This document shows positions 1 to 32,105 of a stretch of 42,347 bases of DNA, piece after piece (position 1 is the first letter of the stretch; every line of letters begins with the position of its first letter). Below the pieces are notes generated by a model that was not told the DNA's origin, did not search any database, and was given only the letters and a program-made list of their open reading frames with translations. Source of the DNA: an uncultured virus (IMG/VR IMGVR_UViG_2061766007_000706) (taxonomy: Duplodnaviria; Heunggongvirae; Uroviricota; Caudoviricetes); IMG/VR virus record IMGVR_UViG_2061766007_000706. One strand, written 5' to 3'. The position numbers were made by a program, and so were the translations under genes.

Positions 1-132
1 CCGCCACACATACACAAAAGCCCCGGAACAATCCACACAACCTTTTTGCGCGGCTCCCCATTCATACGCCCAATGTTCACGGTACATCTGTTGGAAGTAT
101 TCAATCAACTTCCGAACCGGTATCAGTGCCAT
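1..132 (-). CDS. Endolysin N-terminus (NlpC/P60 peptidase, DCSG catalytic Cys); continues at 39986 downward
   Basis: Hand translation from ATG 132: MALIPVRKLIEYFQQMYREHWAYEWGAAQKGCVDCSGAFVYVWR. Bases 1-16 (ccgccacacatacaca) are identical to 39971-39986, where the frame continues VYVWRLFNK... Confidence 0.85.
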   Translation of the reverse strand, partial: MALIPVRKLIEYFQQMYREHWAYEWGAAQKGCVDCSGAFVYVWR

Positions 133-162
133 GTTATCACCCCAAATCGGGCAGAAAATAGC

Positions 163-321
163 TTATTCAGCCTCTTCATAATCCTCTCCGGTGATCTCCT
201 TGAATTCAGCCGCCGTAATCAGATTCGGGACACAGGCACGGACTTTTTCGATTGACCACAGCTTGCGGTCATAGAAGGTCTTAATTTTCTGGAAATTCTT
301 GCTGTGTGTTACCTTACTCAT
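163..321 (-). CDS. XkdX-family small phage protein
   Basis: Not in the ORF track. 52 aa MSKVTHSKNFQKIKTFYDRKLWSIEKVRACVPNLITAAEFKEITGEDYEEAE with the XkdX-like 'IT..EFKEITGEDY' motif, just before the lysin. Confidence 0.8.
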   Translation of the reverse strand: MSKVTHSKNFQKIKTFYDRKLWSIEKVRACVPNLITAAEFKEITGEDYEEAE

Positions 322-641
322 TCGTCCCAACCTCCCATCATTTCAAGGAAAGAAATCCGGGCATCCATTTCAGCCCGCATCTTTTCATCATCGGACATAT
401 CCCGGAGATTGAAAAGATATCCTTCCGACCAGTGCAGAACGGCATCACAAACGAGGTTTTCCTTTTCAACGGTGATATCTTCGCCATCTTCGGGATGTTC
501 GACAATAACAACCGCGCTCAATTCATCCTCGTTCAGATCCGTTTCAAGGGAAACTTCCGATTCGCTGACAAACATTGATCCGTTAAGGGTCAAGTTATCA
601 AGCACATTTCCACTTAATGTGGTGATCGTATACGTACTCAT
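318..641 (-). CDS. Hypothetical phage protein (tail-end/XkdX-adjacent)
   Basis: Acidic ORF with GGAGG RBS before ATG 641; overlaps the XkdX start (coupled). Confidence 0.6.
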   Translation of the reverse strand: MSTYTITTLSGNVLDNLTLNGSMFVSESEVSLETDLNEDELSAVVIVEHPEDGEDITVEKENLVCDAVLHWSEGYLFNLRDMSDDEKMRAEMDARISFLEMMGGWDE

Positions 642-1896
642 AAGCATTCCTCCCATATAATTTTAGAATCAATCTTTCCAATGCCCGTACTTGTGGGTAG
701 GAAAGGTATTCCCGTTTTGAAACTTCCCAACTGCGGTACATATCAAGCACTTCCCGCAACGGGAGCATCCCGCTGTCAACCTTCGGTTTCAGCTTTTTCA
801 GCCGCCGTTTCAAGCGGGTTATTGCCTTTGGGCGCAATCGTTCAAGGATCGTCCCGTTCGGCATTAGCTTGAAATAGTGCTGAAGGTATGTGAATCCTTT
901 ATCAAGGCGCATGATGCAGGATTTCCGTTCATTGGTAAACATTCCAACCCGGTATGATTCCTCATCAATTGATTTTGCCCGTTTGCGTAACTGGCTGATA
1001 TCCGTGTCAATGTCATAGCTATCATCCATATACCGGGCATAGTACAAACTGCCTTGAACGTGTTTCGCCATGCTGTCAACCCGATATGGATACAAGATTC
1101 CAGCGGTTTGTGAGAACTGATCGCCAACATTCATGCCCTTCTTTAGCATTTTCTGACCGATTTTAGGGTGATTCGCTTCCCGGTATGAAACACGGTCAAC
1201 GCGCGTTTCCATTGCGCGGCAAAACTCTTCATCGGTCATATAGCTAACGTCCAATTCACTTGCTGAAAGGAGAAGCCGTACAAGCTTCAAGGCAAGCGTA
1301 TTATCGGTGAATCTGCAGATCTGTTCATAAACCGTATCATGACAGATATTGTCATAATATTTTGATTGATCCTTGAGCCGGATGTATCCGATATTGGTTC
1401 CGTTACGGCTATAAAAGCGGGTCATGTGAGCCCTTAACCGCCGCCTCGCCATGTCAACGCCACGGTTTTTGATGCTTGCGGTGTTATCGTAAATTAGATG
1501 CGGTATGATTGCGGGAACCAGTACAACGTCATTTAGGGAATGGCTAACAACCCGATCACGGAATGTTTGTCCGCAGATCGGGCGCATCCTTCCGCGCTCG
1601 TTCAGCATGAATTCGTACCCGTCATCCGGCGTGTAGCTTTCCGGCAGATCCTCATCGAGCCGGTCAAGCTGGGTTTGGATTTTGGTAATCCTTCTCAAAT
1701 ATTCCCAACAGAACGTTTGAACGCTTTCTTTCCATGCCGTATTCTTTCGGGCTTTAAGCATTGCATCGTAAAGGTTGTTTGCATCCGCTATCGGATTATA
1801 CGATTTCGGCTCACGTAAGATATCCCATTCATAGGCGGTTTGTTGCGCATCCGGCAAGCTGTCCCATGAAAGGGTATCACTGTCAAAGATACTCAT
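598..1896 (-). CDS. DGR reverse transcriptase
   Basis: 432 aa with YARYMDD catalytic motif, DGR-type GMNVGDQFSQ motif and FRDRVV motif; GGAGG RBS; directly downstream of the TR. Confidence 0.95.
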   Translation of the reverse strand: MSIFDSDTLSWDSLPDAQQTAYEWDILREPKSYNPIADANNLYDAMLKARKNTAWKESVQTFCWEYLRRITKIQTQLDRLDEDLPESYTPDDGYEFMLNERGRMRPICGQTFRDRVVSHSLNDVVLVPAIIPHLIYDNTASIKNRGVDMARRRLRAHMTRFYSRNGTNIGYIRLKDQSKYYDNICHDTVYEQICRFTDNTLALKLVRLLLSASELDVSYMTDEEFCRAMETRVDRVSYREANHPKIGQKMLKKGMNVGDQFSQTAGILYPYRVDSMAKHVQGSLYYARYMDDSYDIDTDISQLRKRAKSIDEESYRVGMFTNERKSCIMRLDKGFTYLQHYFKLMPNGTILERLRPKAITRLKRRLKKLKPKVDSGMLPLREVLDMYRSWEVSKREYLSYPQVRALERLILKLYGRNAYEYVYDHHIKWKCA

Positions 1897-1899
1897 AAG

Positions 1900-2030
1900 G
1901 TCTTCACCTCCCCGTCAATGGCCTTGGCCAGACGTTTCGGCTACGTGCGATATTTACTGGTTTCCCAGACGGATAAATCTTCCTTTCGTTCCACAGTCGG
2001 TTTCAATTACTACAAACCGATGTAGCGGGC
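1900..2030 (-). ncRNA. DGR TR-RT spacer RNA region (structured)
   Basis: Non-coding region between the TR 3' end and the RT RBS; hairpins such as CTGG-GAAA-CCAG and TCGGTTT...AAACCGA. Confidence 0.5.
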
Positions 2031-2095
2031 GAAATCGGGCGAACGCCATTGGAGTTGGACGCACCGTTGTTGTTAGCGTTACCGTTGTTGTTAAC
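2031..2095 (-). repeat. DGR template repeat, 3' exon
   Basis: GTTAACAACAACGGTAACGCTAACAACAACGGTGCGTCCAACTCCAATGGCGTTCGCCCG is AAC-rich; 2049-2095 matches VR 3280-3326 with 8 mismatches, all at TR adenines. Confidence 0.93.
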
Positions 2096-2431
2096 CTTAA
2101 TGTTCAGCATGATTCGCTACTTCATACCGGCGTATTAACGCTCCTTTATGTTTCCATAAAGAACAGACTATATCTTTATCCTTTCGGATATCTGCCGCTT
2201 CCACCGTCAATCGCTTACGGTGTACTCCCTTCCGGGATAGTCTTTGAACCTTCTTCATAATGAAGCTTGGATGCTGATTACCCATTATATAAGCGTTTAG
2301 GATTTAACCATGCGCCATCCGTGCATTTGTTTCTACTTTCGCAACCGTTAAGGTATGAACGGCTTTAGGGCTTTTCAGCAATTCAACAGATGTTTTATCA
2401 ATCCGGTTTCCCGAATCGGCAACGAATTTTC
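2096..2431 (-). ncRNA. Group I self-splicing intron (IA2-like, no homing endonuclease ORF) inside the TR
   Basis: P1 GCAAU^G...GUUGC with U-G wobble at the 5' splice site; P AAUUGCUGAAAA (2372-2383); Q AAUCAGCA (2272-2279); R GUUCAAAGACUA (2238-2249); S AAGAUAUAGUC (2166-2176); P3 AUCUGUUG/CGGCAGAU; two stems between P7 and P3'; GAAA-capped P2, P8 and P9; terminal G at 2096. Confidence 0.92.
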
Positions 2432-2481
2432 ATTGCACGCGTTCGTGGCACTGTTCACTGAACGCAACCAATAGTTGGCAC
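2432..2481 (-). repeat. DGR template repeat, 5' exon
   Basis: GTGCCAACTATTGGTTGCGTTCAGTGAACAGTGCCACGAACGCGTGCAAT matches VR 3327-3376 with 4 A-specific mismatches and one G>T. Confidence 0.93.
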
Positions 2482-2504
2482 TTGTAAGATTTACCCGCAA
2501 ACAT

Positions 2505-3167
2505 TTATGGTAAGATGCGGCTCGGATCAGAATCCGGGTCGCACCGTTCCATAGCTTCAGAGAAAGTATGAAAGAACTGTTTCACAGCTTCATTTGTACC
2601 GTTCTGCTCGATAAACGTTAACCAGCGTTTCATATCCTGTTCTCGCAAGGCTTTCCGTTTCGGATTATCACTTTTACGCCACTTGGTTATCAAAGCGATT
2701 TCACGGTCAATTTCCGGCTGAACTTGCGTCATCCAGTTTTTATCAATGGGAACGGTATCCATAATATCTTGTAAGTCTACCATTAACCGTTCACAAGCAC
2801 CGACAGCCCTGTCTTGATAGATTCGCCGCTGGTCGGCTTCCGCAATGGAAACGGGATGTTTGATACAATTTCCCGCCGCAATGTTATGCACCATATCTCG
2901 GATATCGTTATCAACGTCACGGCGTTTCTGTGCAAGAAAGAATCCATCAAGGCATTTCAGCTTTTCAAGGCGATCTGCTTCTTTCTTTTTCCACCGTTCC
3001 TTGCTAACGTCTGACCATTTATCAAAGTTACCGGGTTCTTTGCTTTCTCTTACTTTTAGACCGAAATTCCGCAGATAGGATAGTTCACGGATCATCTTTT
3101 TCAGTACAATGGCATGATCCATGACTTCAAACCCACTTTTGTTTCGATCATTCTTGTGAACGCTCAT
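2505..3167 (-). CDS. avd: DGR accessory variability determinant (Avd-like four-helix-bundle protein)
   Basis: Basic, helical 220 aa ORF between target gene and TR; MSV.K..R..S.FEV start, 'RRIYQDRAVG.C..L' and 'EIALITKWRKSD' motifs typical of Bacillota DGR accessory proteins. Confidence 0.75.
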   Translation of the reverse strand: MSVHKNDRNKSGFEVMDHAIVLKKMIRELSYLRNFGLKVRESKEPGNFDKWSDVSKERWKKKEADRLEKLKCLDGFFLAQKRRDVDNDIRDMVHNIAAGNCIKHPVSIAEADQRRIYQDRAVGACERLMVDLQDIMDTVPIDKNWMTQVQPEIDREIALITKWRKSDNPKRKALREQDMKRWLTFIEQNGTNEAVKQFFHTFSEAMERCDPDSDPSRILP

Positions 3168-3187
3168 CCTTCATCGCCCTCCCGTGT

Positions 3188-3216
3188 AGCCATGCCCCGG
3201 CGGGGGCCGCGTGGTT
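3188..3216 (-). promoter_or_regulatory. GC-rich hairpin downstream of VR (candidate DGR target-recognition hairpin)
   Basis: GCCCC-4 nt-GGGGC at 3194-3207 within a longer imperfect inverted repeat, just past the end of the target gene. Confidence 0.55.
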
Positions 3217-3219
3217 GTG

Positions 3220-4022
3220 NNNNNNNNNNNNNNNNNNNNNNNNNNNNNNNNNNNNNNNNNNNNNNNNNNNNNNNNNNNNCTGGAGTTGGACGCACCGCGG
3301 TAGTCAGCGGTACCGTAGGTGTTAACATAGCACGCGTGCGTGGCACTGTAAACTGAACGCAACCAATAGGTGGCACGAATGTCCTCTACATCATGGTTGT
3401 GCCGGAAAATGCTCAACTGCCGTTTGGCGTGTCCAACTTCATAGCCCTTACCGCCAACACTCCATGCGGGGAATCCGTACACTTCGGTTTCGCTCATCAG
3501 TTCAACTTTGCAATCCACCCATGCCCAGCCGGTTGCGTTGCCGCTGGCATCATAGGTAGAAGGAAGCAAACCACGGTAAGCGAGAACGTGCGCGTTTCCG
3601 AATGCCGCGATAACTTTTGCTTCCGCGCCCTGTGCATCGCCGTTCGCGGCTTTAATATTCGCGCGGATAGCACTGGCAACGTAGCCGCCAGTCGTTGTGT
3701 TCGTATCATTCCATTTCGCGGAATACAGGTTCCTGTCCGGGATCACGGCGATATGATGTGTACCCAGTGCGGTATCACCATCGTTGTAATACGTATCAAA
3801 ATCCGCAATCAGCCAGTTTACGCCGTTGATCGTCCAATAATCACCGATATACATTCCATCAAATGTTCCGGCGATAATTGCCGCGCTCTGTTCTGCGGTA
3901 AGCGCATTGCCGAGGTATTTACCCCGGTAAAGCGAGTTGTGGAATCCGGCATTGTTGTTTCCGAGAGCCGCACTCGCTTTGTAAATTGTGTGTCCAACGA
4001 CACCGACTAATGAACTACCCAT
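3220..4022 (-). CDS. DGR target protein, putative receptor-binding/C-type-lectin-fold protein (DUF6273-like); true stop probably hidden in the N-gap 3220-3279
   Basis: IGDYW...TNTTTGGY...YWLRS motifs; C-terminus contains the VR; last gene of the tail-fibre cluster; GAGGAGG RBS. Confidence 0.85.
3280..3376 (-). repeat. DGR variable repeat (VR); 3' end and IMH masked by Ns
   Basis: Ungapped match to the spliced TR; encodes ATYWLRSVYSATHACYVNTYGTADYRGASNS. Confidence 0.93.
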
Positions 4023-4037
4023 AGTGTTTTACCCTCC

Positions 4038-4292
4038 TCAATAGTTAAAATATAACTTGTAATCTTCACCGTCTAACGAAACGGTGTAAGGACAAGTCGC
4101 GGTTGTGCCGTGCCAGTACAGTTTGAATTCATCTCCATCCACTTCAACTGTAAAGGCGCATTCCTGCAGAGATTCCGAAATGGCTTCATCAATGGCTTGC
4201 ATATTCGCGTTGTAGCCGGATCGGAACGTCTTTGGTCTGTCGGTACTATCCGGGATAACCAAATGCAGATTGCCCGTGGTTTGTGATGCCAT
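4038..4292 (-). CDS. Hypothetical tail-associated protein
   Basis: MASQTTGNLHL... start after AAAGGAGG RBS; N-terminus resembles tail-fibre N-termini (T.N..L..P....D....YN.NM..ID). Confidence 0.55.
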   Translation of the reverse strand: MASQTTGNLHLVIPDSTDRPKTFRSGYNANMQAIDEAISESLQECAFTVEVDGDEFKLYWHGTTATCPYTVSLDGEDYKLYFNY

Positions 4293-4309
4293 GTGCGATC
4301 CTCCTTTCA

Positions 4310-4743
4310 TTATGCTGTGCGTTTCCAGTAATGAATTGAACCGGTTCCCGCTTCGGTTTCATAGCTTTGCGTGTTCGCTTCCACTTCAGCCCATGTTTCG
4401 GTGATTCGGATTTCCACCCATGTGCCGCCGAATGAAGGAGCCGTACTGCTTGTGGACATATAAATTGATCCAACGGGGAACATCAAATTCAACGCCTCCT
4501 CTGCCGTGTAATATGTATCGGGGATACCGCTTATTACGATATCCCCGGACATATACTTACCATTTGATGCGATTGTTTGCTGTTGGCGTGTTGGCGTTAC
4601 GGTTTGACCGGCAAGCGTTTGAATGTTGCCGGTAATCTGTGCGCCGGATGCANNNNNNNNNNNNNNNNNNNNNNNNNNNNNNNNNTAAGATCAATAATGG
4701 TTTCTCCACCAAGCATGAATTTTGCGCCGGGTGAATATGCCAT
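4310..4743 (-). CDS. Tail/baseplate-associated protein (gap-split)
   Basis: MAYSPGAKFMLGGETIIDL, N-gap, then ASGAQITGNIQTLAGQTVTPT...KYMSGD...FPVGSIYMSTSSTAPSFGGTW; the ORF track reports only the last 80 aa. Confidence 0.6.
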
Positions 4744-4757
4744 ATTCACTCACCGCC

Positions 4758-5354
4758 TTAACCAATAGAATAGATCAACCCGCCCGTTGTCTGATCCGTT
4801 GTGATGGTAACTTGAATCGCGTTTACCGTCACTTGACTCAAGCAGTTATACCCGGAATCCGGTAAGAGAACCTGTTGTGACAGGGACGGGGTAACGGTTT
4901 TCGCCTGTGCATTCATATCTTCCGTTCCGGTCATCGTACCCTCGATATCAAGGATCGTAACGCCCTGTCGGACGTTTGCCGGAATCAAGGCCGCTTTATC
5001 TGCGGAACTTAATCCGATACCGCCGGAACCATCGTGATAGCCCTGTGGAATGGCTTTTTCTGTGTCCCGCGCTTCAAGGGTCAAGTGCTTTTCCCCTTGA
5101 TTGCTCATTGAACCGGTATGAACAGAACCACCTTTACCAAAGGTCTTACCGGAAAGCACTTCACCATCCAACGCGGTACAACCGCTTGAATCAACGTCTT
5201 TTGTGCTTGTACCAGTTGCGATTGAACCATTGGCTTTGTGAAATTGTTTCCCGTATGCAACGTCACCCTCCACAACGTCATCTTGCGTTAAGTCAAAGAC
5301 AACATCGCCGCCGAGGATAAATTTTGCACCCGGGAGGTACGTAGGATTCGACAT
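4758..5354 (-). CDS. Tail-associated protein
   Basis: IPQGYHDGSG and LIPANVRQGVTILDIEGT, KTVTPS..QVLLPDSGYNCLSQVTV motifs common in Bacillota phage tail genes. Confidence 0.6.
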   Translation of the reverse strand: MSNPTYLPGAKFILGGDVVFDLTQDDVVEGDVAYGKQFHKANGSIATGTSTKDVDSSGCTALDGEVLSGKTFGKGGSVHTGSMSNQGEKHLTLEARDTEKAIPQGYHDGSGGIGLSSADKAALIPANVRQGVTILDIEGTMTGTEDMNAQAKTVTPSLSQQVLLPDSGYNCLSQVTVNAIQVTITTDQTTGGLIYSIG

Positions 5355-5370
5355 TTGCTTTGATCCCCTT

Positions 5371-5661
5371 TCAATCAATATAGTATGTCAAACCCCCGGA
5401 GGGGCTTGTAACAATAGAAACCGGGACTTCTGTGACGGTGATATCATCGTTAAGAACTTTCCCGGCTGTTGGAAGGATCGTTTGTTCCTTCACTTTTGGA
5501 GTGACCGTTGTTTCCCCGGTATATTCTTCATAATCCTGCGCAACGATTACGGGATCTCCGGGGGAATAGGAAACCTCTTCATCATCGCAACTGATTTCAA
5601 AAAGGATTACCGGATCATCTTCAATAACAAAAGGTACGCCGCATCCGCAATTATTCGCCAT
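5371..5661 (-). CDS. Hypothetical phage tail-region protein
   Basis: YTGETTVTPK...LPTAGKVLNDDITVTEVP; coupled to neighbours. Confidence 0.6.
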   Translation of the reverse strand: MANNCGCGVPFVIEDDPVILFEISCDDEEVSYSPGDPVIVAQDYEEYTGETTVTPKVKEQTILPTAGKVLNDDITVTEVPVSIVTSPSGGLTYYID

Positions 5662-5977
5662 AGCTAATCACGTCCTTCAACAGTACGTCATTAACGCATA
5701 GCGGCTTTTTCACGGTCACACCGGCTTTACCGTTGGAGAATATGAATCGAATCTGGGAATAGGCGTTTCCGGCTTCGATGGCAAGTGTTTCAGCCTGTGT
5801 CAGTTCCACTTCACCAACGGTATCCTGTCCGTCAAATTCAACGGTGAATCGTTCACTGTCACTGGTGATCGTTGTATTCTTGCCGGATTTATCTTGAATC
5901 GTCAGAAACAATTTTGCTTCCGTCAGATCCTTGCCGATTATCCGAATCGGTAACGTTGGAGTTGATCCCCGATACAT
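5651..5977 (-). CDS. Hypothetical tail-region protein (BppU-N-like beta protein)
   Basis: MYRGSTPT...LTQAETL...QIRF pattern. Confidence 0.55.
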   Translation of the reverse strand: MYRGSTPTLPIRIIGKDLTEAKLFLTIQDKSGKNTTITSDSERFTVEFDGQDTVGEVELTQAETLAIEAGNAYSQIRFIFSNGKAGVTVKKPLCVNDVLLKDVISYGE

Positions 5978-5981
5978 TTAA

Positions 5982-7185
5982 TCACCCCCAAGATTCGATA
6001 TCGCCCCATGTGGCTGTCATGATCCTTCTTAATTCAGCGGAAAGGGTTGTTAACTGCCATTTCGTAGAATCCCACGCTTCCGGGATCGTGATAGGCGTAA
6101 TACACCGATAAAGCAAATTATCGTTGGTGCAATAAGCATCAAGCGCATACGTTCCATTATCTGGATCGTATTCATCCGCATCCAGCGGTAATGCAATATT
6201 ATGGTTTTCATCCGGCCCGATTCCGTTTACGGTGTTCACAGATCCTGTACCATCAACACCATAACGGGCAATGGTATAAGAAGTGATCGTTTCACCCGTA
6301 GAGAATGTAATCGCGGTTTTCGTCCACAGGAAACGCCCCGGAGTGATGGAAGGAATAGAATCCTGCCAATTTGATGGAGCCNNNNNNNNNNNNNNNNNNG
6401 ACTGAATATGTGGTGATTGTGATATCATCGCCGCGATCACCCTTCTGCCCTTTGATCTTGAACCACTGGTAAGAAGTGTAATGCGCGGGAGCCGTATCGG
6501 ATGATCCGTAATATACACCAATATAGTTATCCGGCACATCCTTCATATCGCTGTCCTGTGTAGGTTCAGCCGCGCTGTACTTGATCCACGTATACGTGTT
6601 ATCTCCTTTATCGCCTTTTTCACCGTTCGTCACGGTAAAGGTTGTGGAAGTTCCATCGTTATACGCAATCGTGTACGTATCCACCAACCCGGATGTACTG
6701 GTTTTCGTGATGCTGGAAATACCTTTACCGTTGGTCACGGTGAAGGTTGTTTCCGTTCCATCGTTGAATGCGATCTTATAGGTATCAACGAGAACGTTTG
6801 TTCCGGTCTTTGTGATACTGGAAATGCCTTTACCGTTGGTCACGGTAAATGTTTCGGTTGTGTTATCGTTGTACGTGATCGTATAGGTATCAACGAGAAC
6901 CGATGTACCGGTCTTTTCAATGGATACAATACCCTTACCATTGGTTACGGTGAATGTTTTGGTTGTTTCATCGGCAAAGGTGATCGTATACGTATCCACA
7001 AGAACCGATGTGCCGGTTTTTTCGATTTTGTTGATACCGCCGTGACCGTCCAATGCTTCAGCCAAACAGTTAACCAACGTCTGACCGGTTAGGCGTTTTG
7101 CTTCACCTTCCTGTTCAAGAACAAAATTGTCAACGTTGTTTACTCTTGTTGCCGCTGTCAGTTCCGATATCGCCCGATCTGCCAT
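5982..7185 (-). CDS. Tail fibre protein with 35-aa tandem repeats and collagen-like triplets (frame broken at N-gap 6382-6399)
   Basis: ORFs 6292-7185 and 5982-6539 join across the gap; repeats NGKGISSITKTGT.VLVDTYTI.YNDGT.TTFTVT; GEKGDKGD; YTWIKYS; FLWTKT. Confidence 0.75.
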
Positions 7186-7375
7186 CTTTCACTTCAGCCC
7201 CTTCTTTAGCTTTTTCTTTTTGTTCTTTAATGCCATCAAGGATCATGAGTTTCATCTGGTCAATGGCTCCCATGCATCCGAGCATTCCGTCAACATTGTT
7301 TCTTCCCTTCACCTCTATACAATCAAGGGTATTGGCGAGGGTGTCGAGCATTCCGTACAAGGTTTCAAGCAACAT
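7130..7375 (-). CDS. Hypothetical protein
   Basis: 81 aa ORF with GGAGG RBS in the tail operon. Confidence 0.55.
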   Translation of the reverse strand: MLLETLYGMLDTLANTLDCIEVKGRNNVDGMLGCMGAIDQMKLMILDGIKEQKEKAKEGAEVKDGRSGDIGTDSGNKSKQR

Positions 7376-7413
7376 GGTTTTATCCTCCTTTTTATTGTGC
7401 TTTTAACGCAGTA

Positions 7414-7695
7414 TTAAGTTAATTCTGAAAAATAGTTTGGGTTTTTCAGAGCAAGTCTAACTTCTTCATCTAATGCGGAAACATCCGTGATTACTGTGTA
7501 CCCATTATATTCGGCAACGGGATCTTCATTTTCATTGTAAAAATACTTAATACTATTTGATTCTTCTGGTTGAGAGAAAACAGCAACAAGTTCTGGAAGA
7601 GTATGCCCAATGATAGTGATATACAGAATATCATGCAAAGCCCCACAGTGTTTCGCATTAAATGTTTTATCGGTTCCCGTTTTAATGCACTCCAT
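7414..7695 (-). CDS. Hypothetical protein
   Basis: 93 aa ORF with AAGGAGG RBS; AT-richer than its flanks. Confidence 0.6.
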   Translation of the reverse strand: MECIKTGTDKTFNAKHCGALHDILYITIIGHTLPELVAVFSQPEESNSIKYFYNENEDPVAEYNGYTVITDVSALDEEVRLALKNPNYFSELT

Positions 7696-7710
7696 TTTTA
7701 TTCCTCCTTT

Positions 7711-9510
7711 TTAGTGATAAGCGTATAGAACCTTTTTGCTTTCTGTTGTTACCGATTTATTCGTAAAATCAACAGCTGTTACGTATGTAATTGTTGTCCA
7801 CTTTGCTGTTACAGGAGAACTACCATCGTCTACGGTAAGAGTTCCAACGTGCGCATTAGTAAAATCTCCGTTTTTCGCGGTAACACGGCGATCCTTTTTT
7901 TCCGTTCCCGAAATATCCCGTGTATATTCATAAGATGTTTGTCCGTGGGTAACTTCTGTACCATGATCAGTCTTTGCTTTCGTAACAGTTCCGTTGGTTA
8001 ACTTACTACCGTTTACGCCGCTGATTTTTCCATCGCTGACTGTACCATCGGTTAATTTACTACCGTTAACACCACTAATTTTCCCATCGCCAATTGTCGA
8101 ATCTGTGATGTTGCTCCCATCCAGTGTGTAAGTTGTTCCATCTGGGTTTGTAAACGTCAGTTTGGATGCATAAATTGTGCCACCGAAAGTACCGTTGTGC
8201 GCGGTAAGATTTCCGTTTGAATCAACAGTGAAAGCGGCTGTGTATTCCCACGATCCATCCTGCCTTTGTTTACCCGCGCCCATCGCAATACCGCTGTTAC
8301 CGATGAAGATACCCGCATCTGTTCCACTATAACTGGTTTTTCCACGATATATACCACTGTTACCAATGATCCACGGATTATCACCGGAACCGATTGTACC
8401 GTCTTTAGCCGTAAGGGAACCGCCGTTTGTGACCTTGAACTTACCACCGCCGAGGGCGATACCATCATAACCGATATACATACCGGTTGTGTTCGTTGTG
8501 TCATCCCGGCTGGTCATTCCGCTTAACACGGTTAACCGCCCGTTACTCTGTTGCACCTTGAAACTGTTCTTTGCATCCTTGTAAACGGCTATGCCATCCG
8601 TGCCGACATAGGTTCCGGCATCCGTCCCGGATAGGGTTGAAAGACCGTTGTAAATGCTTTTCGCGCCGATGTGCCAACAGGAAGAATCAGATCCGATTGT
8701 ACCNNNNNNNNNNNNNNNNNNNNNNNNNNNNNNNNNNNNNNNNNNNNNNNNNNNNNNNNNNNNNNNNNNNNNNNNNNNNNNNNNNNNNNNNNNNNNNNNN
8801 NNNNNNNNNNNNNNNNNNNNNNNNNNNNNNNNNNNNNNNNNNNNNNNNNNNNNNNNNNNNNNNNNNNNNNNNNNNNNNNNNNNNNNNNNNNNNNNNNNNN
8901 NNNNNNNNNNNNNNNNNNNNNNNNNNNNNNNNNNNNNNNNNNNNNNNNNNNNNNNNNNNNNNNNNNNNNNNNNNNNNNNNNNNNNNNNNNNNNNNNNNNN
9001 NNNNNNNNNNNNNNNNNNNNNNNNNNNNNNNNNNNNNNNNNNNNNNNNNNNNNNNNNNNNNNNNNNNNNNNNNNNNNNNNNNNNNNNNNNNNNNNNNNNN
9101 NNNNNNNNNNNNNNNNNNNNNNNNNNNNNNTCTTCCTGCGGTGCGCTGAAATTGCTATAAAACGTGCGCCCAAACGTTGAATCTTGATGATAAACCCCAC
9201 CGTATACACCGTTGGTTTGCACGGCATCGCCCATTTCAACGGCAGGATCAACCGTAGCGTTTTGAACTTCATATGGCTGATACTGATATCCATTGACTTT
9301 CTGCAGGATATCATTTGCCATTTGTTGTGTTCCCCACGGGCAAGTTAATTCAAGCGTAATGCCGGAATCATCCCCGGCAACGTATGAAATAATTGAATCA
9401 TCGGAACCGTCAATCTTTTCAACATTGATAATTACTTTGCTATAAGGCGTTTGTATATCGGATTTTCTTACGTCTGTTGCCCGTTTACCGATATTTACAA
9501 CATCCGGCAT
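7711..9510 (-). CDS. Tail spike/Tal-like protein (427-nt N-gap inside)
   Basis: Follows Dit and baseplate genes; Gly-rich beta repeats (GTIG...W.IG, GIYIG.DGIALG). Confidence 0.65.
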   Translation of the reverse strand: MPDVVNIGKRATDVRKSDIQTPYSKVIINVEKIDGSDDSIISYVAGDDSGITLELTCPWGTQQMANDILQKVNGYQYQPYEVQNATVDPAVEMGDAVQTNGVYGGVYHQDSTFGRTFYSNFSAPQEXXXXXXXXXXXXXXXXXXXXXXXXXXXXXXXXXXXXXXXXXXXXXXXXXXXXXXXXXXXXXXXXXXXXXXXXXXXXXXXXXXXXXXXXXXXXXXXXXXXXXXXXXXXXXXXXXXXXXXXXXXXXXXXXXXXXXXXXXXXXXXXGTIGSDSSCWHIGAKSIYNGLSTLSGTDAGTYVGTDGIAVYKDAKNSFKVQQSNGRLTVLSGMTSRDDTTNTTGMYIGYDGIALGGGKFKVTNGGSLTAKDGTIGSGDNPWIIGNSGIYRGKTSYSGTDAGIFIGNSGIAMGAGKQRQDGSWEYTAAFTVDSNGNLTAHNGTFGGTIYASKLTFTNPDGTTYTLDGSNITDSTIGDGKISGVNGSKLTDGTVSDGKISGVNGSKLTNGTVTKAKTDHGTEVTHGQTSYEYTRDISGTEKKDRRVTAKNGDFTNAHVGTLTVDDGSSPVTAKWTTITYVTAVDFTNKSVTTESKKVLYAYH

Positions 9511-10944: not shown

Positions 10945-13900
10945 TCACCCCCATGCTCTGCTTTGTTGCCGTTGATACTTTGTTACAACATCCGCGATAG
11001 TTCGTCCGTCAACTTCCAGTTTGATAACAACCGGATCACCTTCCGAACTGCCGCTTTGTGACCGGGTGATAGCGTTGTAAAGCGCATCTTCAAGCCCGGT
11101 AAGCCCCGTTTCCGTGCTTCCTGTGGCGTTTCCCGCCGCCTGTGCGCCGTAGGGGATCACTTGTCCACTTGCAATAGCGGGAAGCGGTAAACCACCCATC
11201 TGGGCTATTGAATCGGTTATTCCAATGAATATATCCGCGATACGTGCTAACTTATCCGTTACGGTATCAAGTCCATCCGTCATCGCGTCAATCTGTACGG
11301 AAATACCGTTTCCGTTTTCAGCTTCCTCTACCATTGCACTTGCGATATCGCCAACCGTGCTGATAGCATCTTCCCCGGTATCCTCAAGCCCGATCTGCAT
11401 ACCCTCCATGACATAACCGCCGATCTGCTCAAATACCTTTGACGGGGATGCAATACCGAGGATTTCACGCGCGGTATCTGCGCACACGTTACAGATTTCG
11501 GCCATAACATCAACCAACGTTTGACCATAGGCATAGAATCCGTTAATCATACCGATCAACATATTTTCACCGATGGTTTTACCGATGGATTCGTTAATGT
11601 ATGCCTGTACTGTCGCGAGAACATCGGAACCAATTGTTCCTGCGTCTGTAACTGCACCGGAATAGTTGTTTGCTAATCCGTCATCAATTCCGTATACAAA
11701 AGCTTCTCCGATATCGCTTCCATTGGATCTGCTTAACGCTTCTGCGGCGGTATCCCGGATTTGTGCGGAAACTTCGCCCATATTCACGTTAACAACGGAA
11801 TAATTGTAAGCGATTCCGTTGTTCCATCCGTCAATGAATGCTTTGGTGATTTCTTCACCAGCACCCTTTGACATAATTTTTGCGGCTTCATCAACAACTG
11901 CTTGTGCCGCAACCTTGATTGCTTCAACCGCAACCGGATCACCGTTGGCGATGGCTTGCGTTATTGCGGCCATCATGGTTTCAGCATAGGGCTTCACATT
12001 GTCGGGAAGAACGGCTAACGGANNNNNNNNNNNNNNTCCGATGCGTCACCGACTTTATCGCTGTTATCCTGCATACCGGTTACGAGGTTTGTATCTACGG
12101 CTTCGCCGGTTGTGCTTGCTTCGCCCGTGATCGCTTCACGGGAATCTTTTGTGGATGCGAGGTCTTCCAGTTCATCCGCTTTAGATTCCAGTTCCGTTTT
12201 ACCCGCTTCGTAACCTTGAATCATGCCCTCCGGCATCAAACGCCCCATTGCATCACCGGTATCCGTTGCCAGTTCACCGGCTACCGTCTGCAGATCTTTG
12301 CCCGTGGAGTTCATATACTCCATGAGGTTCGCGTGTAGGTTTGTCGTGTCCAGTGCCGCAATGGTACTTTGATCCACACCCATAGCCAACAGCATTAACG
12401 CCGCACCTATGTTTTCTGTACCTTTCCCTCTAATGGATTCAGCAAATCCATCCGTTACGCTGATACCGGCATCGCCAAAGTGCTTCTTGATTTCTTCAAC
12501 TGTTGCCGTATCAAGTGATATACCGGCGAGGAGTTCGTTCGCTTGTGCGGAGAAGCGGTTAACCTGTTGACCCAAACCCCAGTCATTGTTTGACAGGACT
12601 TCGGTAAATTCATCTTGGAATCCGATTCCCAACGCCGCCGCTGTCGCAAGCATAGTGGTACGTGCCGCATCATATTCTGTACCGGCTTGACCAATGTTCT
12701 GCATAAACAGATACATCATGTTATCTGCCGCAAGTTCACCAGCTTTTCCAGCTTGTTCTTGCAATTGTCGTTCAACTTCACCGGAAAAAACATCCGGGAC
12801 TTCAACGTGTTCATAATCTTCCTGCTTGCCGAAGATCAGTTCAATAAGCCGCTGTGCCAGACCACCAACTGCAGTAGCCGCCGCCCAAAGAGCATCCCAC
12901 AAAAGCCCGAACAATTTTTTACCGATACCCAACCAGTCAACGTTGCCCAGCGCATCACCGATAGATTTCCCGACTTCATCCCAATCCGTCTTTGTAATAA
13001 ATTCATCAATGCCGGTAATAATACCCTTGACCGCATCACTGAATTTCTTACCCAAATCAGACCAGTCAATATAACTTTGCCCGGATGAATCCTTTCCGAA
13101 AACCTTGTTGATACCTTCTGCCACACTTGCGCCGAGTTCGTCCCATTTGATGTTTGCAACGGCGGTAAGAAGTGTTTGGGCAAGGGTATAAATGCCGAGG
13201 AAAAGCGTGAAAATCAAATTCGCCCAATCAATTTTACTGATAAGACCGTTTACGCCATCAGCAAAGGTTTGCGCGATATCGCCCCAGTTTGTGGTTTCAA
13301 TAAACGTTCTAATACCACTTACGATCCCGTCAATTGCCGTACTAACATCCGATGTTAGTTTATCCCAATCGAGATTCGGGTTGCCGTTTTCATCTTTACC
13401 GAAAATCTTATTGATCCCGTTAGCAAAGCTTACGGCAAGTTCATCCCATTTGATGTTCGCCAACGTGGATGCAATCGTTGAAACAATTGAGAATAATCCG
13501 AGAATCAACGTGAAAATCATGTTAGCCCAATCAATTTTCTTAACGAGCCCGTTGATCCCGTTTGCAAAGGTTTGCGCCATTGCACCCCAATCCGTTGTTT
13601 CAAGAAAAATGCGGATACCATCAACAATTCCGTTGATTGTTCCGCTGATCCCTTCCGTTAGTTTATCCCAATCAAGATTCGGATTGCCGTTTTCATCTTT
13701 ACCGAAAACTTTGTTAATTCCGTCCGCAAAACTCTTTGCAAACGCGCCCCAATCAATAGATGCAAGGGTTGTTGCAATAGTCAATGTGATACGGAAAAAT
13801 CCGAGAACAATTGTCCAAACAAGGCTTGCCCAGTCAACACCAGTAATGATCTCATTGATTCCATCAGCAAACGTCTTTGCCATCTGATCCCAATCAACGG

Positions 13901-16366
13901 TTTCAAGGAACGTCCGAACACCGGTGACAATGTTGTTAATACTATCTTTGATATGCGTTGCAAGGGTTTTCCAGTTCAAATCTCCGTTTTCCGAACTGAA
14001 AATCTTATTCACACCGTCCGCGAATTTCTTTGCCAATTCAGCCCAATTGATACCGGCAAGGATTTCATAGAATGTGCTTGTGATCCTGTGGAAACCCAAC
14101 GCGATAGTGTAAATAAGTTCTGCCCAATCAACATTTTCAATGATACTATTTACGCTTTCCTTAAACTGGGTTGCAAGTCCGTGCCAATCAAAATCCCGGA
14201 TGAACACTTGAATTGCTTCCGTGATTCCGTTCAATCCGGCTGTGATACCTTCGCTTAATTCACGCCAATTGATACTATTGACAAATGTATTCAAACCAAC
14301 GGCGAAATCAGATCCGATATCAGCCCAATCAAGGTTTTTGAAGAAATTGGATACGGTCACAATAAGGGCATTCCATTTTGCCGCAAAAAACGATCCGAGC
14401 AATTCCCAATCAATGTTGTCAAAGATGCTGTTTACGCCATTTGCAAGCTGTTCACCCAAACGCGCCCAATCAAACGTTGTAAGGAAGGTATAGCCAATAT
14501 CAATAATAGCGTTCAGACCGTCCGCGAACATTTTTCCCAATGCTTCAAAATCGAATTTGTCTACAAGCCCGTTAAGAATTCGCGCGATGTTTCCCGCCCA
14601 TTCAACGCCGAATGGCCGTAATTTATTGTTAATCCAATCATCAATGCTTGTGACAACCCAATTTAGCCCGTCCGCGACAAGTTCACCGACCTGTTCCCAG
14701 TTCTGATTCGCTATTGCGTCTTTGATACTGTTGAAAAGATTCTGAATGGATTCCGGGAGAAGGTTGGCGATATCCTTTTCTTCAAAGGTTGCGCCGGTTG
14801 ATCCCCCACCGCCGCCGGATTCGCTTTCCTGCTTTGTCAGTTCATCAAATCCGTAGATCTGGTGATTCAGATCTTTTGCCGCGCCGGATGCGCTTTTAAG
14901 GCTTTTTGCATAATCATCCGTTGAATTTTTTGCCACCATAACCGATGATTTACCGGAAAGTAAAGCAAAAAACGCGTTGATATAGCTAATAGCCGTTGAT
15001 AGCCAGTTGATGATTGTGGACAACGCCGGAGCAACGGCATTCACAAGATTGCTGAATGTTACGGCGAGGTTGCCGCCCATCGTGGTAGCCGAATTCTTGA
15101 TATTCGACATTGACCGGTTAAATTCATCAGATGCTTTTGCGATATTGTGAAGGGATGCCTGTACGCTTTTGAAAATTGCAGAAATGAACATCCGTTTTAC
15201 ACGGGTAATCAGCATCCGCTTTACGCTCATAAGGCTTTTCACAAGCCCATTTGACGTAAGGGTTGTACTTTTCGTTTTGTTGCTGAATGCGGACAAGGCT
15301 TTCTTTGCCATGTTCGCACCCGCCGNNNNNNNNNNNNNNNNNNNNNNNNNNNNNNNNNNNNNNNNNNTACGGCGGTTCGTCCCATCGTTGCAAGTGCCGT
15401 TGTAAAACCGGAAATAAGCATTTTTGCGCCGCTGATAGCCGCGCCGAGGGTAGCGGATATCGCTGATGCAAGCCCGGAAATAGCGGTTTTTACCGTGGAA
15501 ATAATACCACTTCCGAGGGCGTGTACACCGGAAACAAAGCTATTCAGCCCCGCGTGCGCGATTGTTGCCGCATTGCTTCCAATAGACCGTAACATTGAAC
15601 CGAAACCAGATGCGGAAGATGCCGCTTTCTGTGATTCGTTCGATGTTTCCGTTTCCGCATTGGAAAGATTACGGAGGGAGTTGGCCGCTTGATCCGCGCC
15701 CATGAACAGCTGTGAATACGCGCCCGTCTGATTGCCCTGCGCAAAGGCGGTTCCGCTGTCAATCATGGATTGCATATCAGCCCTAACATCTTCAAGCTTC
15801 GCCTGTGCGTTTTCAATTTCAAGGGATAAACGCTTCCATGAATTACTGTTTTCATCCACGCCGAGATCCGAAAGCATACCTTGACGGTCATAAAGCTTTT
15901 CAAGCTGTGCTTCCAGTTTCGCCGCATCACTTTCCAGCCGTGTGTAGCCTTCGCTTTTCACTTCCACCTGTCCGACAGCGAGAATCGTTCCTTGAAGTTT
16001 GGTCATTTCCTGCTGAACTTTCGCCAAATCGGATTGCCATTTAATGGCTTGTTCATCGGACTTAAAGCCTTGATTCGCCCGTTGCTGAAGGGAAATGATT
16101 TTACCTTGCAACGTATCAACCGCATTTGCCATAGAACCGAGGTTCTTTTGGAATTGCGCTTCGGTCATTGAACTTGAGAATGTCTGTGCTTGTCTTGCGA
16201 CATTTTGAAGGGCAGGAGCGATAGCACTAATGTTTGCCTGTGCTTGCTGTCCAAAGTTATTGACAGCGGTTTGCAGACCATTGATCGCGCTTCGCATCTG
16301 GTTGGAACCGCTTTGAAAACCTCTGTTATCAAGTCGGGTATCAACCACGATAGATGCATCAGCCAT
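10945..16366 (-). CDS. Tape measure protein (three ORF pieces split by N-gaps at 12023-12036 and 15326-15367)
   Basis: MADASIVVDTRLD start, coiled coil, GFDEL motif, many DW-spaced repeats, LGIASPSKVF motif, IKLEVDGRTIA C-terminus. Confidence 0.9.
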
Positions 16367-21920: not shown

Positions 21921-22119
21921 CTTACCTCCGTGTCATGCACCATGATACCGCTTTAATTTGTATATCCGTTGCCGCTCAACGGTTGTGATGCCCCATGCAT
22001 TTATATCCCGGCATGGTAGGGTAATGTATATCATGCGGTTATCCGCTTGATACCTTGTTTCCCGGTGTTTCTGTGTTGCACACCGGAAAGCGTGTTTGTT
22101 ATGCCGTTTTCCCGGCTAA

Positions 22120-31834: not shown

Positions 31835-32105
31835 TCACCTCGCATCCGCGTCTGCAGATCTGCCCTCACCGCGATCCCGTGTAGCCCTCCCGCCGGATCT
31901 CATCCTCCGCATCTGGGCTTGCCCGCTGATCATCATGCACATCTGCACAACCTTATTCACCGCTTCCGGGCTATCCACGCAACCGGCTACCGTAAAACCC
32001 ATCCGGGCAAGCTGGGTCTGCACAAATAACTGCCGTTGCCGTGGTTCTTCGCCCGGTCTTTTCAGTTCCGCAAACACCACCGCCCCACCGGGCAACAGAA
32101 TAATC
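31835..32105 (-). CDS. VRR-NUC nuclease (N-terminus lost in gap)
   Basis: IILLPGGAVVFAELKRPG..PR..Q...LARMGF motif upstream of SNF2. Confidence 0.8.

Follow-up and report, generated by a model that had tools for sequence, protein, structure and literature searches.

Group I introns are found in bacterial non-coding RNAs, namely in tRNA-Leu and other tRNA genes and in 23S rRNA, and other phage introns of the IA2 type are said to be those of T4 (td, nrdB and sunY), Twort and SPO1. A template repeat (TR) of the diversity-generating retroelement (DGR) of phage BPP-1 tagged with the td intron was reportedly described by Guo et al. in 2008. According to Naorem et al. 2017 (PMC5703328), the td group I intron was engineered into the TR of the DGR of Bordetella phage BPP-1, and only the spliced sequence reached the variable repeat (VR) or cDNA, which was read as proof of an RNA intermediate. 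In the passages searched of open-access papers and preprints (PMC5703328, PMC9610469, PMC12386605, PMC4143802, PMC5758913, PMC4372165 and PMC8144416), no natural group I intron in a DGR template is reported and only the engineered tag was found; those of Paul 2015 (PMC4372165) make no mention of introns in TRs. Split or short TRs could be listed in the supplementary tables of the large DGR surveys (PMC8144416, PMC5758913). Here we analyse a stretch of 42,347 nt from an uncultured Caudoviricetes virus (IMG/VR record IMGVR_UViG_2061766007_000706; the whole stretch is called the window below), in which a group I intron lies within a TR. Both parts are ordinary, and their natural combination is without description in the literature searched.

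The host of the intron is a phage DGR made up of a target gene with the VR, a 220-aa accessory gene, the TR, a structured spacer and a reverse transcriptase (RT), all encoded on the minus strand (Table 1). The RT next to the TR is of the DGR type by its phrog_1423 match and by its boxes VGDQFSQ and YMDD, both of which are invariant in four relatives; [LIV]GxxxSQ is the hallmark motif of DGR-type RTs. Against Pfam RVT_1 the protein scored 28.7 bits, 0.9 below the cut-off of 29.6, and its match to PDB 8ub7 ('Reverse transcriptase', E 7e-4) was weak. The consensus fold of the spacer, built from nine loci, contains 38 predicted pairs, 10 of which covary with changes on both sides. RT-2 RNA (RF03077, 74-113 bits) was found in 13 distant DGR loci (within L029-L042), about 80-330 nt upstream of the RT start and hence at the place of the TR and spacer, and in none of the window's clade (RT at least 52% identical), so that this clade has a different DGR RNA, the spacer structure of which covaries.

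The accessory protein is conserved in seven sister loci with 52-59% identity and had no sequence match in Pfam, NCBIfam or PDB. Its AF2 model (pLDDT 81.6) hints at a likeness to 2gsc and 2rld, four-helix bundles of the Avd family, through weak fold matches with E 0.2-0.9 and TM to target 0.69-0.74. In the window and its sister loci the protein measures 220-227 aa, and Avd is about half that size. The target gene, in turn, matched DUF6273 weakly (24.6 bits, cut-off 23.5). Beyond the DGR, the genes of the window, among them tape measure, portal, terminase, serine integrase and holin, are those of a temperate siphovirus-type genome. A promoter and terminator scan of 500-4200 returned counts under the shuffle expectation and nothing usable.

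Several further properties of the window were recorded. It contains 21 runs of N (for example 3220-3279 and 8704-9130), 982 N in all. A GP20-a RNA (RF02991, 65.7 bits, gathering score 47.2), a cis-regulatory motif, lies between head-morphogenesis genes at 21922-22025 (-), and the tape-measure gene at 13027-14677 (-) holds several diverged repeat families with a main period of 303 nt. Two pairs of AT-rich intergenic repeats, 84-90% identical, are located in the regulatory/replication region: 38197-38348/42197-42347, 4000 nt apart and extending to the window's end, and 36527-36626/37723-37822, 1196 nt apart.

Table 1. Features of the DGR and of its group I intron (window positions; (-), minus strand)
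Feature	Position	Description	Basis
DGR reverse transcriptase	598..1896 (-)	432 aa	phrog_1423 'Reverse transcriptase', E 3.5e-43
Spacer RNA, structured	1897..2028 (-)	From TR to RT start	Consensus fold of 9 loci
TR 3' exon	2029..2095 (-)	67 nt, AAC-rich; 7 mismatches, all at A	Repeat D14, 85% to VR 3281-3326
Intron 3' tail	2097..2143 (-)	Two predicted hairpins (P9.1-/P9.2-like), then single-stranded AACAUUAA before omega-G2096	
P9	2161..2144 (-)	6/7 pairs change on both sides	
P8	2189..2178 (-)	3/4 pairs change on both sides; J8/7 between P8 and P7 3' strand	
P7	2242..2238 (5' strand), 2170..2166 (3' strand) (-)		
P7.2	2222..2202 (-)	3/6 pairs change on both sides (14-15 rows with letters there)	
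P7.1	2237..2226 (-)	Invariant, within the search pattern	
Catalytic core	2190..2391 (-)	P3-P7.2	Rfam alignment and covariation
P3	2391..2384 with 2197..2190 (-)	5/8 pairs change on both sides	
P4	2380..2375 with 2277..2272 (-)		
P5 and extension, P6/P6a	within core 2190..2391 (-)		
P2 hairpin	2399..2418 (-)	CGAUUCGG-GAAA-CCGGAUUG; 8 bp, GAAA loop	Fold
P1	2419..2436 (-)	Exon GCAAU and intron GA (2436..2430) with UCGUUGC (2425..2419); 7 bp	Rfam alignment and fold
TR 5' exon	2432..2481 (-)	50 nt; 5 mismatches, 4 at A	Repeat D20, 90% to VR 3326-3376
Accessory ORF	2505..3167 (-)	220 aa, all-helical, in the position of avd between VR and TR	
DGR target gene	3171..4022 (-)	ORF as listed crosses an N stretch, true stop hidden; downstream of tail and baseplate genes	
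VR, visible part	3281..3376 (-)	Continuous across the intron position (3326); 3' end in N run 3220-3279	

The TR is interrupted and the VR is not. Direct repeats link 2431-2481 to 3326-3376 (90%) and 2050-2095 to 3281-3326 (85%), 0.9-1.2 kb upstream; the VR runs continuously over 3376..3281, while its counterparts in the TR, 2481..2432 and 2095..2050, are 336 nt apart. When 2431..2096 was removed, the TR aligned with the VR over 96 nt without a gap and with 12 mismatches, 11 of them at TR adenines and one at G2456 beside a changed A, five on the 5' side of the junction and seven on the 3' side. Adenine occupies 29 of the 96 TR positions (P ~ 2e-5 for the adenine bias), and 11 of these 29 template adenines differ in the VR. 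It is only with the intron removed that differences confined in this way to adenines, as in a DGR, appear between TR and VR. In the reading frame of the target, the junction lies between two codons. The 3' exon can be compared with the VR over 2095..2050 only, the remaining VR being under N along with its homing signal (a DGR has IMH at the 3' end of the VR and IMH* at that of the TR), and the exon's end at 2029 was set by homology to the 117-nt TRs of sister elements. The TR begins 24 nt past the accessory ORF and may therefore belong to a polycistronic transcript. An earlier note on this DNA, made from the letters alone, had rightly described the host of the intron as a non-coding RNA; that host is the DGR template repeat, adjoining the DGR RT.

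The group I intron occupies 2431..2096 (-), 336 nt, exactly the interval given in that note, and is fixed to the base by the RF00028 match together with the ungapped alignment of the spliced TR with the VR. RF00028 covers 2442..2144 (-) over its full model (1-253 of 253) with 93.6 bits and E 5.8e-23, the gathering score being 50 bits. The intron begins with G2431 and ends with omega-G2096, and the last base of the 5' exon, U2432, forms a wobble pair with G2423 in P1; ribozyme rules (the U-G wobble of P1 and the terminal G) thus lead to the same boundaries as the independent break between TR and VR. In the Rfam alignment J3/4, J6/7 and J8/7 are near consensus, and 39 nt inserted after the P7 5' strand and ahead of the P3 3' strand hold the two hairpins that the note had named P7.1 and P7.2. 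Subgroup IA2, as reportedly defined by Michel & Westhof (1990), is marked by this additional pair of hairpins between the two strands, and with both present the intron is IA2-like.

The note had called the intron ORF-less. Two ORFs overlap it, of 62 aa (2097-2285) and 41 aa (2375-2500); neither matched a Pfam family, and the 62-aa ORF had no PHROG match. The note had also suggested looking for a free-standing HNH/GIY-YIG gene in the unassembled part of the genome; in the window, 982 nt of which are N, no HNH, GIY-YIG or LAGLIDADG gene was found among the 56 ORFs of at least 70 aa. An 86-aa phrog_93 'endonuclease' fragment at 31835-32095, by an N run, was considered as a homing enzyme and rejected: it has no Pfam match, a helicase gene adjoins it, and it is presumably a replication-module nuclease. 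The idea that the 3' tail is the relic of such a gene was likewise dropped, as the tail showed no meaningful similarity to that of the Enterocloster intron described below.

P1 and P2, both of which had been proposed before, fold together at -18 kcal/mol (z -3.5), and the splice site that P1 defines through U2432-G2423 agrees with the TR/VR break. The support for P2 comes from the fold, the P2 elements of the relatives not being homologous (matches begin at intron nt 84-91). From P9 to the 3' end the fold reaches -20.7 kcal/mol (z -3.9), with P9 and two further hairpins; the MFE fold of the tail favours an extended P9 plus these two hairpins, where the earlier note had a possible P9.0 of UGUUC/GAACA. 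The P5 extension alone was no better than shuffles (z +0.4), and inspection of the sequence allowed 1 bp of P10 at best.

For the conserved helices we relied on covariation among relatives. A 31-nt pattern from J6/7 to P7.2 occurred at 112 places in IMG/VR, 80 loci were fetched, and 57 distinct relatives plus the window gave an alignment of the 3' half with 58 rows. In it, 95.1% of the cells of P7, P7.1, P7.2, P8 and P9 were paired, compared with 31-50% when the 3' partners were slid; both partners vary in 12 of the 26 pairs, and none of 500 shuffles reached the covariation score. The 5' strand of P7, P7.1 and the first 3 nt of P7.2 belong to the search pattern, so invariance there is uninformative, and the signal comes from P7.2, P8 and P9. 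Among the 3' helices put forward earlier, these three are thereby borne out, while for P7 and P7.1 the comparison says nothing either way. In the 5' half, 37 relatives were anchored on J3/4 and the misanchored L077, L098, L104 and L108 were left out, which gave 34 rows; P3, P4, P5, P6 and P6a were paired in 92.0% of cells (27-49% when slid), and 13 of 24 pairs change on both sides. Taken together, the paired cells and the compensatory changes indicate that the intron core is real and intact, as the earlier note had claimed.

In the phage collection, the introns closest to that of the window belong to Enterocloster phages and are 79.7% identical across intron nt 91-288. The one in Enterocloster phage CB457P2 (OP172754.1; L004) scores 95.9 bits against RF00028 and shares the core, P7.1 and P7.2 included, at about 80% identity across 198 nt, and a reading of the two Rfam alignments shows compensatory differences in P3, P7.2 and P9. 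It carries a GIY-YIG/NUMOD3 homing endonuclease after P9 and sits between two annotated protein-coding segments, whereas the window intron lacks an ORF, differs in P1-P2 and in the 3' tail, neither of which is homologous to its Enterocloster counterpart, and has untranslated exons that are a template for reverse transcription. The endonuclease of this closest relative makes an endonuclease-bearing ancestor plausible. In agreement with the Enterocloster neighbourhood of the intron relatives, the nearest genomic relatives of the RT are prophages of Clostridia and Lachnospiraceae. None of the 80 IMG/VR loci fetched with related introns had an RT within 3 kb. An exact 28-nt intron core had no match in IMG/VR, and a megablast search with window positions 1-8000 gave no match in the phage collection.

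Intron-less alleles, which the earlier note had proposed to seek in sister phages, were found in all eight sister elements (L001-L003, L006-L009 and L315; RT 57-65% identical), each of which has one uninterrupted TR of 117 nt. Writing the intron position as a slash, the empty site reads ...AAT/GT(C/G)AACAACAACGG in these eight TRs and ...AAT/GTTAAC in the window, with an exact GCAAU in three of them (L001, L003 and L007). RF00028 had no match in 41 related DGR rows, and L155-L327 were screened by BLAST with intron cores instead of Rfam. A split-repeat detector, which recovered the window's TR with its 336 nt as a positive control, revealed no second split template in 214 rows, representing 167 distinct DGR loci, where only short or low-identity matches appeared; it requires halves of at least 22 nt each, an identity of 70-72% or more and a VR on the same strand within the fetched flank, so that remote or diverged cases are missed. 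Counting the window, the TR is split in one of 168 DGR loci. One candidate, in L327 (~2014-2016), was rejected as an artefact of N in its VR: in this Lachnospiraceae genome contig the variable core of the VR is replaced by N and the TR is intact, which mimics a split template in repeat screens.

The stretch occurs in ruminant gut metagenomes, with at least half of its words in 15 DNA runs; the 20 rows containing some part of it belong to 12 studies and include two runs that are its possible source. Two DNA samples (X3 and X5) and two RNA samples (X16 and X17) were compared as assembled contigs of low depth, regions of the RNA runs without cover not being counted as absence. In X5 one unbroken contig spans 600-2987 with 23 differences and includes the whole intron, and the two splice sites are covered by a pair of X3 contigs as well (600-2227 and 2198-3219/3282-4100). 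The intron-bearing TR is therefore present in the source and in two other studies, with a flank divergence of about 1%, which weakens the idea of a recent arrival that the earlier note had entertained. Where the second X3 contig skips 62 places of the window (3220-3281, among them the N run), X3 has 84 letters, and the N run thus misstates the true length. Among the 18 of 24 differences listed for this contig piece, which make the count a lower bound, at least eight separate the X3 VR from that of the window, seven at template adenines on both sides of the junction and the eighth at G2456; the VR divergence is at least 8/95, compared with at most 16/724 in the rest of the piece. A shared intron-bearing TR together with these VR differences indicates that the populations carry differently diversified, intron-free VRs.

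The lone non-adenine mismatch of the window, VR 3351 (T) against TR 2456 (G), is peculiar to it, the contigs of X3, X5 and X16 carrying the template's G. An X3 contig of 104 nt that skips 2095-2430, with six differences in 59 nt, was dismissed as an intron-less TR and read as a VR variant; it was placed on the TR since in the reference N takes the place of the VR 3' end. Many contigs of X3, X5 and X17 match the intron core alone (loose ends at 2135-2319) and then diverge from the window, so that related group I introns are common in these rumen communities and break assemblies at the core.

Among the RNA samples, X16 yielded a contig of 184 nt (depth 2.6) that joins 2481..2431 to 2092..1960 and departs from the window otherwise only in lacking 2 nt at 1978 and in having C in place of T at 2093; X16 had no cover inside the intron. 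The contig continues through 69 nt of the TR-specific spacer, which shows that it is no VR. The C at 2093 is of the synonymous type (GTT/GTC) and is shared by six of the eight sister TRs that lack the intron, with G in the remaining two, so an intron-less allele is among the possible sources; the contig may represent spliced TR RNA of a variant strain, such an allele, or DNA in the RNA library. In X17 a contig covering 1980-2130 without differences is unspliced across the 3' splice site and represents either precursor RNA or DNA carry-over.

We favour, with a probability of roughly 0.8, the reading that the DGR stays functional as the ribozyme leaves the template RNA before reverse transcription, the intron being a selfish element in a conserved, transcribed and untranslated site. 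The accessory-TR-RT region would be transcribed and the intron would fold, P1 being formed by GCAAU, the final five bases of the exon, and GUUGC of the internal guide. To judge from its sequence, and indirectly from the intron-free VR and the exon-exon contig of X16, the intron would then splice itself in vivo in a guanosine-dependent manner, two transesterifications excising it and leaving a continuous TR RNA (...GCAAU/GUUAAC..., junction at the slash). The DGR RT would prime in the spacer, copy the ligated TR and misincorporate at adenines, and the cDNA would replace the VR. Unspliced RNA would be a dead-end template, either because the RT stalls in the folded intron or because a wrecked intron would enter the tail-protein gene, so that DGR function would depend on splicing and the ribozyme core would be kept intact. 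On the simplest view the intron itself arrived through homing at the DNA level or through an ectopic insertion and shed its endonuclease gene afterwards. Self-splicing in vivo, its place ahead of reverse transcription, what becomes of unspliced RNA and how the intron arrived are inferences, whereas the data show the intron with its boundaries, the identity of the DGR, an intron-free VR changed at adenines on either side of the junction, the occurrence in other samples and the lack of the intron in sister TRs. A functional DGR is supported by the conserved and intact spacer structure and by the catalytic boxes kept in the RT, while the VR could have come to differ between samples before the intron was inserted, or through intron-less templates acting in trans.

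The last point is developed in an account which we consider unlikely, namely that a recent or neutral intron crippled the DGR, that the adenine differences are older or were made in trans by co-resident intron-less TRs and that the intron-bearing TR was never a template. The intron-less state of all eight sister TRs would fit such a history, as would the want of an endonuclease gene in the window to account for spread and the exon-exon contig of X16, whose C at 2093 is compatible with an intron-less allele in closely related phages. However, an allele recovered from the source and two other studies with about 1% divergence in its flanks is not a one-off, the VRs of those samples differ at template-adenine sites on either side of the junction, and neither the core, which shows no decay, nor the RT and the spacer RNA, both intact, look like parts of a crippled element. 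An assembly chimera, in which the assembler joined the intron of another rumen phage into the TR, is hardly credible. Same-sample contigs do share the intron core and break within 2135-2319, and one pair of X3 contigs meets inside the core, but the X5 contig spans the region independently with its own differences, the ends of the insert follow group I rules with a guide sequence complementary to the TR exon, and the joined exons restore the VR exactly.

As to origin, the earlier note had suggested that the intron was reverse-spliced into TR RNA and copied by the neighbouring DGR RT, the cDNA becoming fixed in the TR. The RT and an abundant RNA target do adjoin, and P1 needs GCAAU only, which is present at the empty site of three of the eight sister TRs. 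This route nevertheless appears very improbable, since the DGR RT randomises adenines (11/29 in the VR) and those of the intron have been spared: it has 116 adenines, all 19 columns with A in at least 90% of the 57 relatives are A here, and its only two departures from conserved columns are both at C columns. The chance that all 19 would be spared in one unselected pass at the 11/29 rate is about 1e-4. Moreover, DGR cDNA homes to the VR and not to the TR, and no VR examined carries an intron.

Returning to the preferred reading, of a DGR kept functional by splicing, one could go a step further and suppose that the intron gates the DGR. Only spliced RNA would be usable, so diversification of the tail protein would need folding and guanosine-dependent splicing, and the interrupted TR DNA, being non-collinear with its mutagenised cDNA, would be shielded from overwriting. 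We regard this extension as doubtful; if it were true, split templates would be a selectable DGR architecture, overlooked by finders that expect a contiguous TR. Independently of gating, a split TR offers only repeat halves of 46-51 nt, from which we conclude that DGR catalogues based on contiguous TR/VR pairs may miss or mis-size such elements.

Compared with the known systems, the BPP-1 construct is a laboratory tag with the T4 td intron, whereas the intron of the window is natural, sits in another DGR clade, that of a Clostridia-type phage of the rumen, and has persisted across several samples. It is a natural counterpart of the experiment with an intron-tagged TR, and from the VR, which lacks the intron and is mutated at adenines, the same conclusion follows, that the DGR proceeds via an RNA intermediate. 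It also presents a testable dependency between two RNA systems, with ribozyme splicing placed upstream of mutagenic reverse transcription. The introns of bacterial tRNA and 23S rRNA genes are like that of the window in that the ribozyme resides in an untranslated, highly conserved RNA without help from the ribosome. Their hosts, however, are stable housekeeping RNAs of the cell, whereas here the host is the template RNA of a phage retroelement, which adds such a template, as a transcribed, untranslated and strongly conserved site, to the habitats of group I introns.
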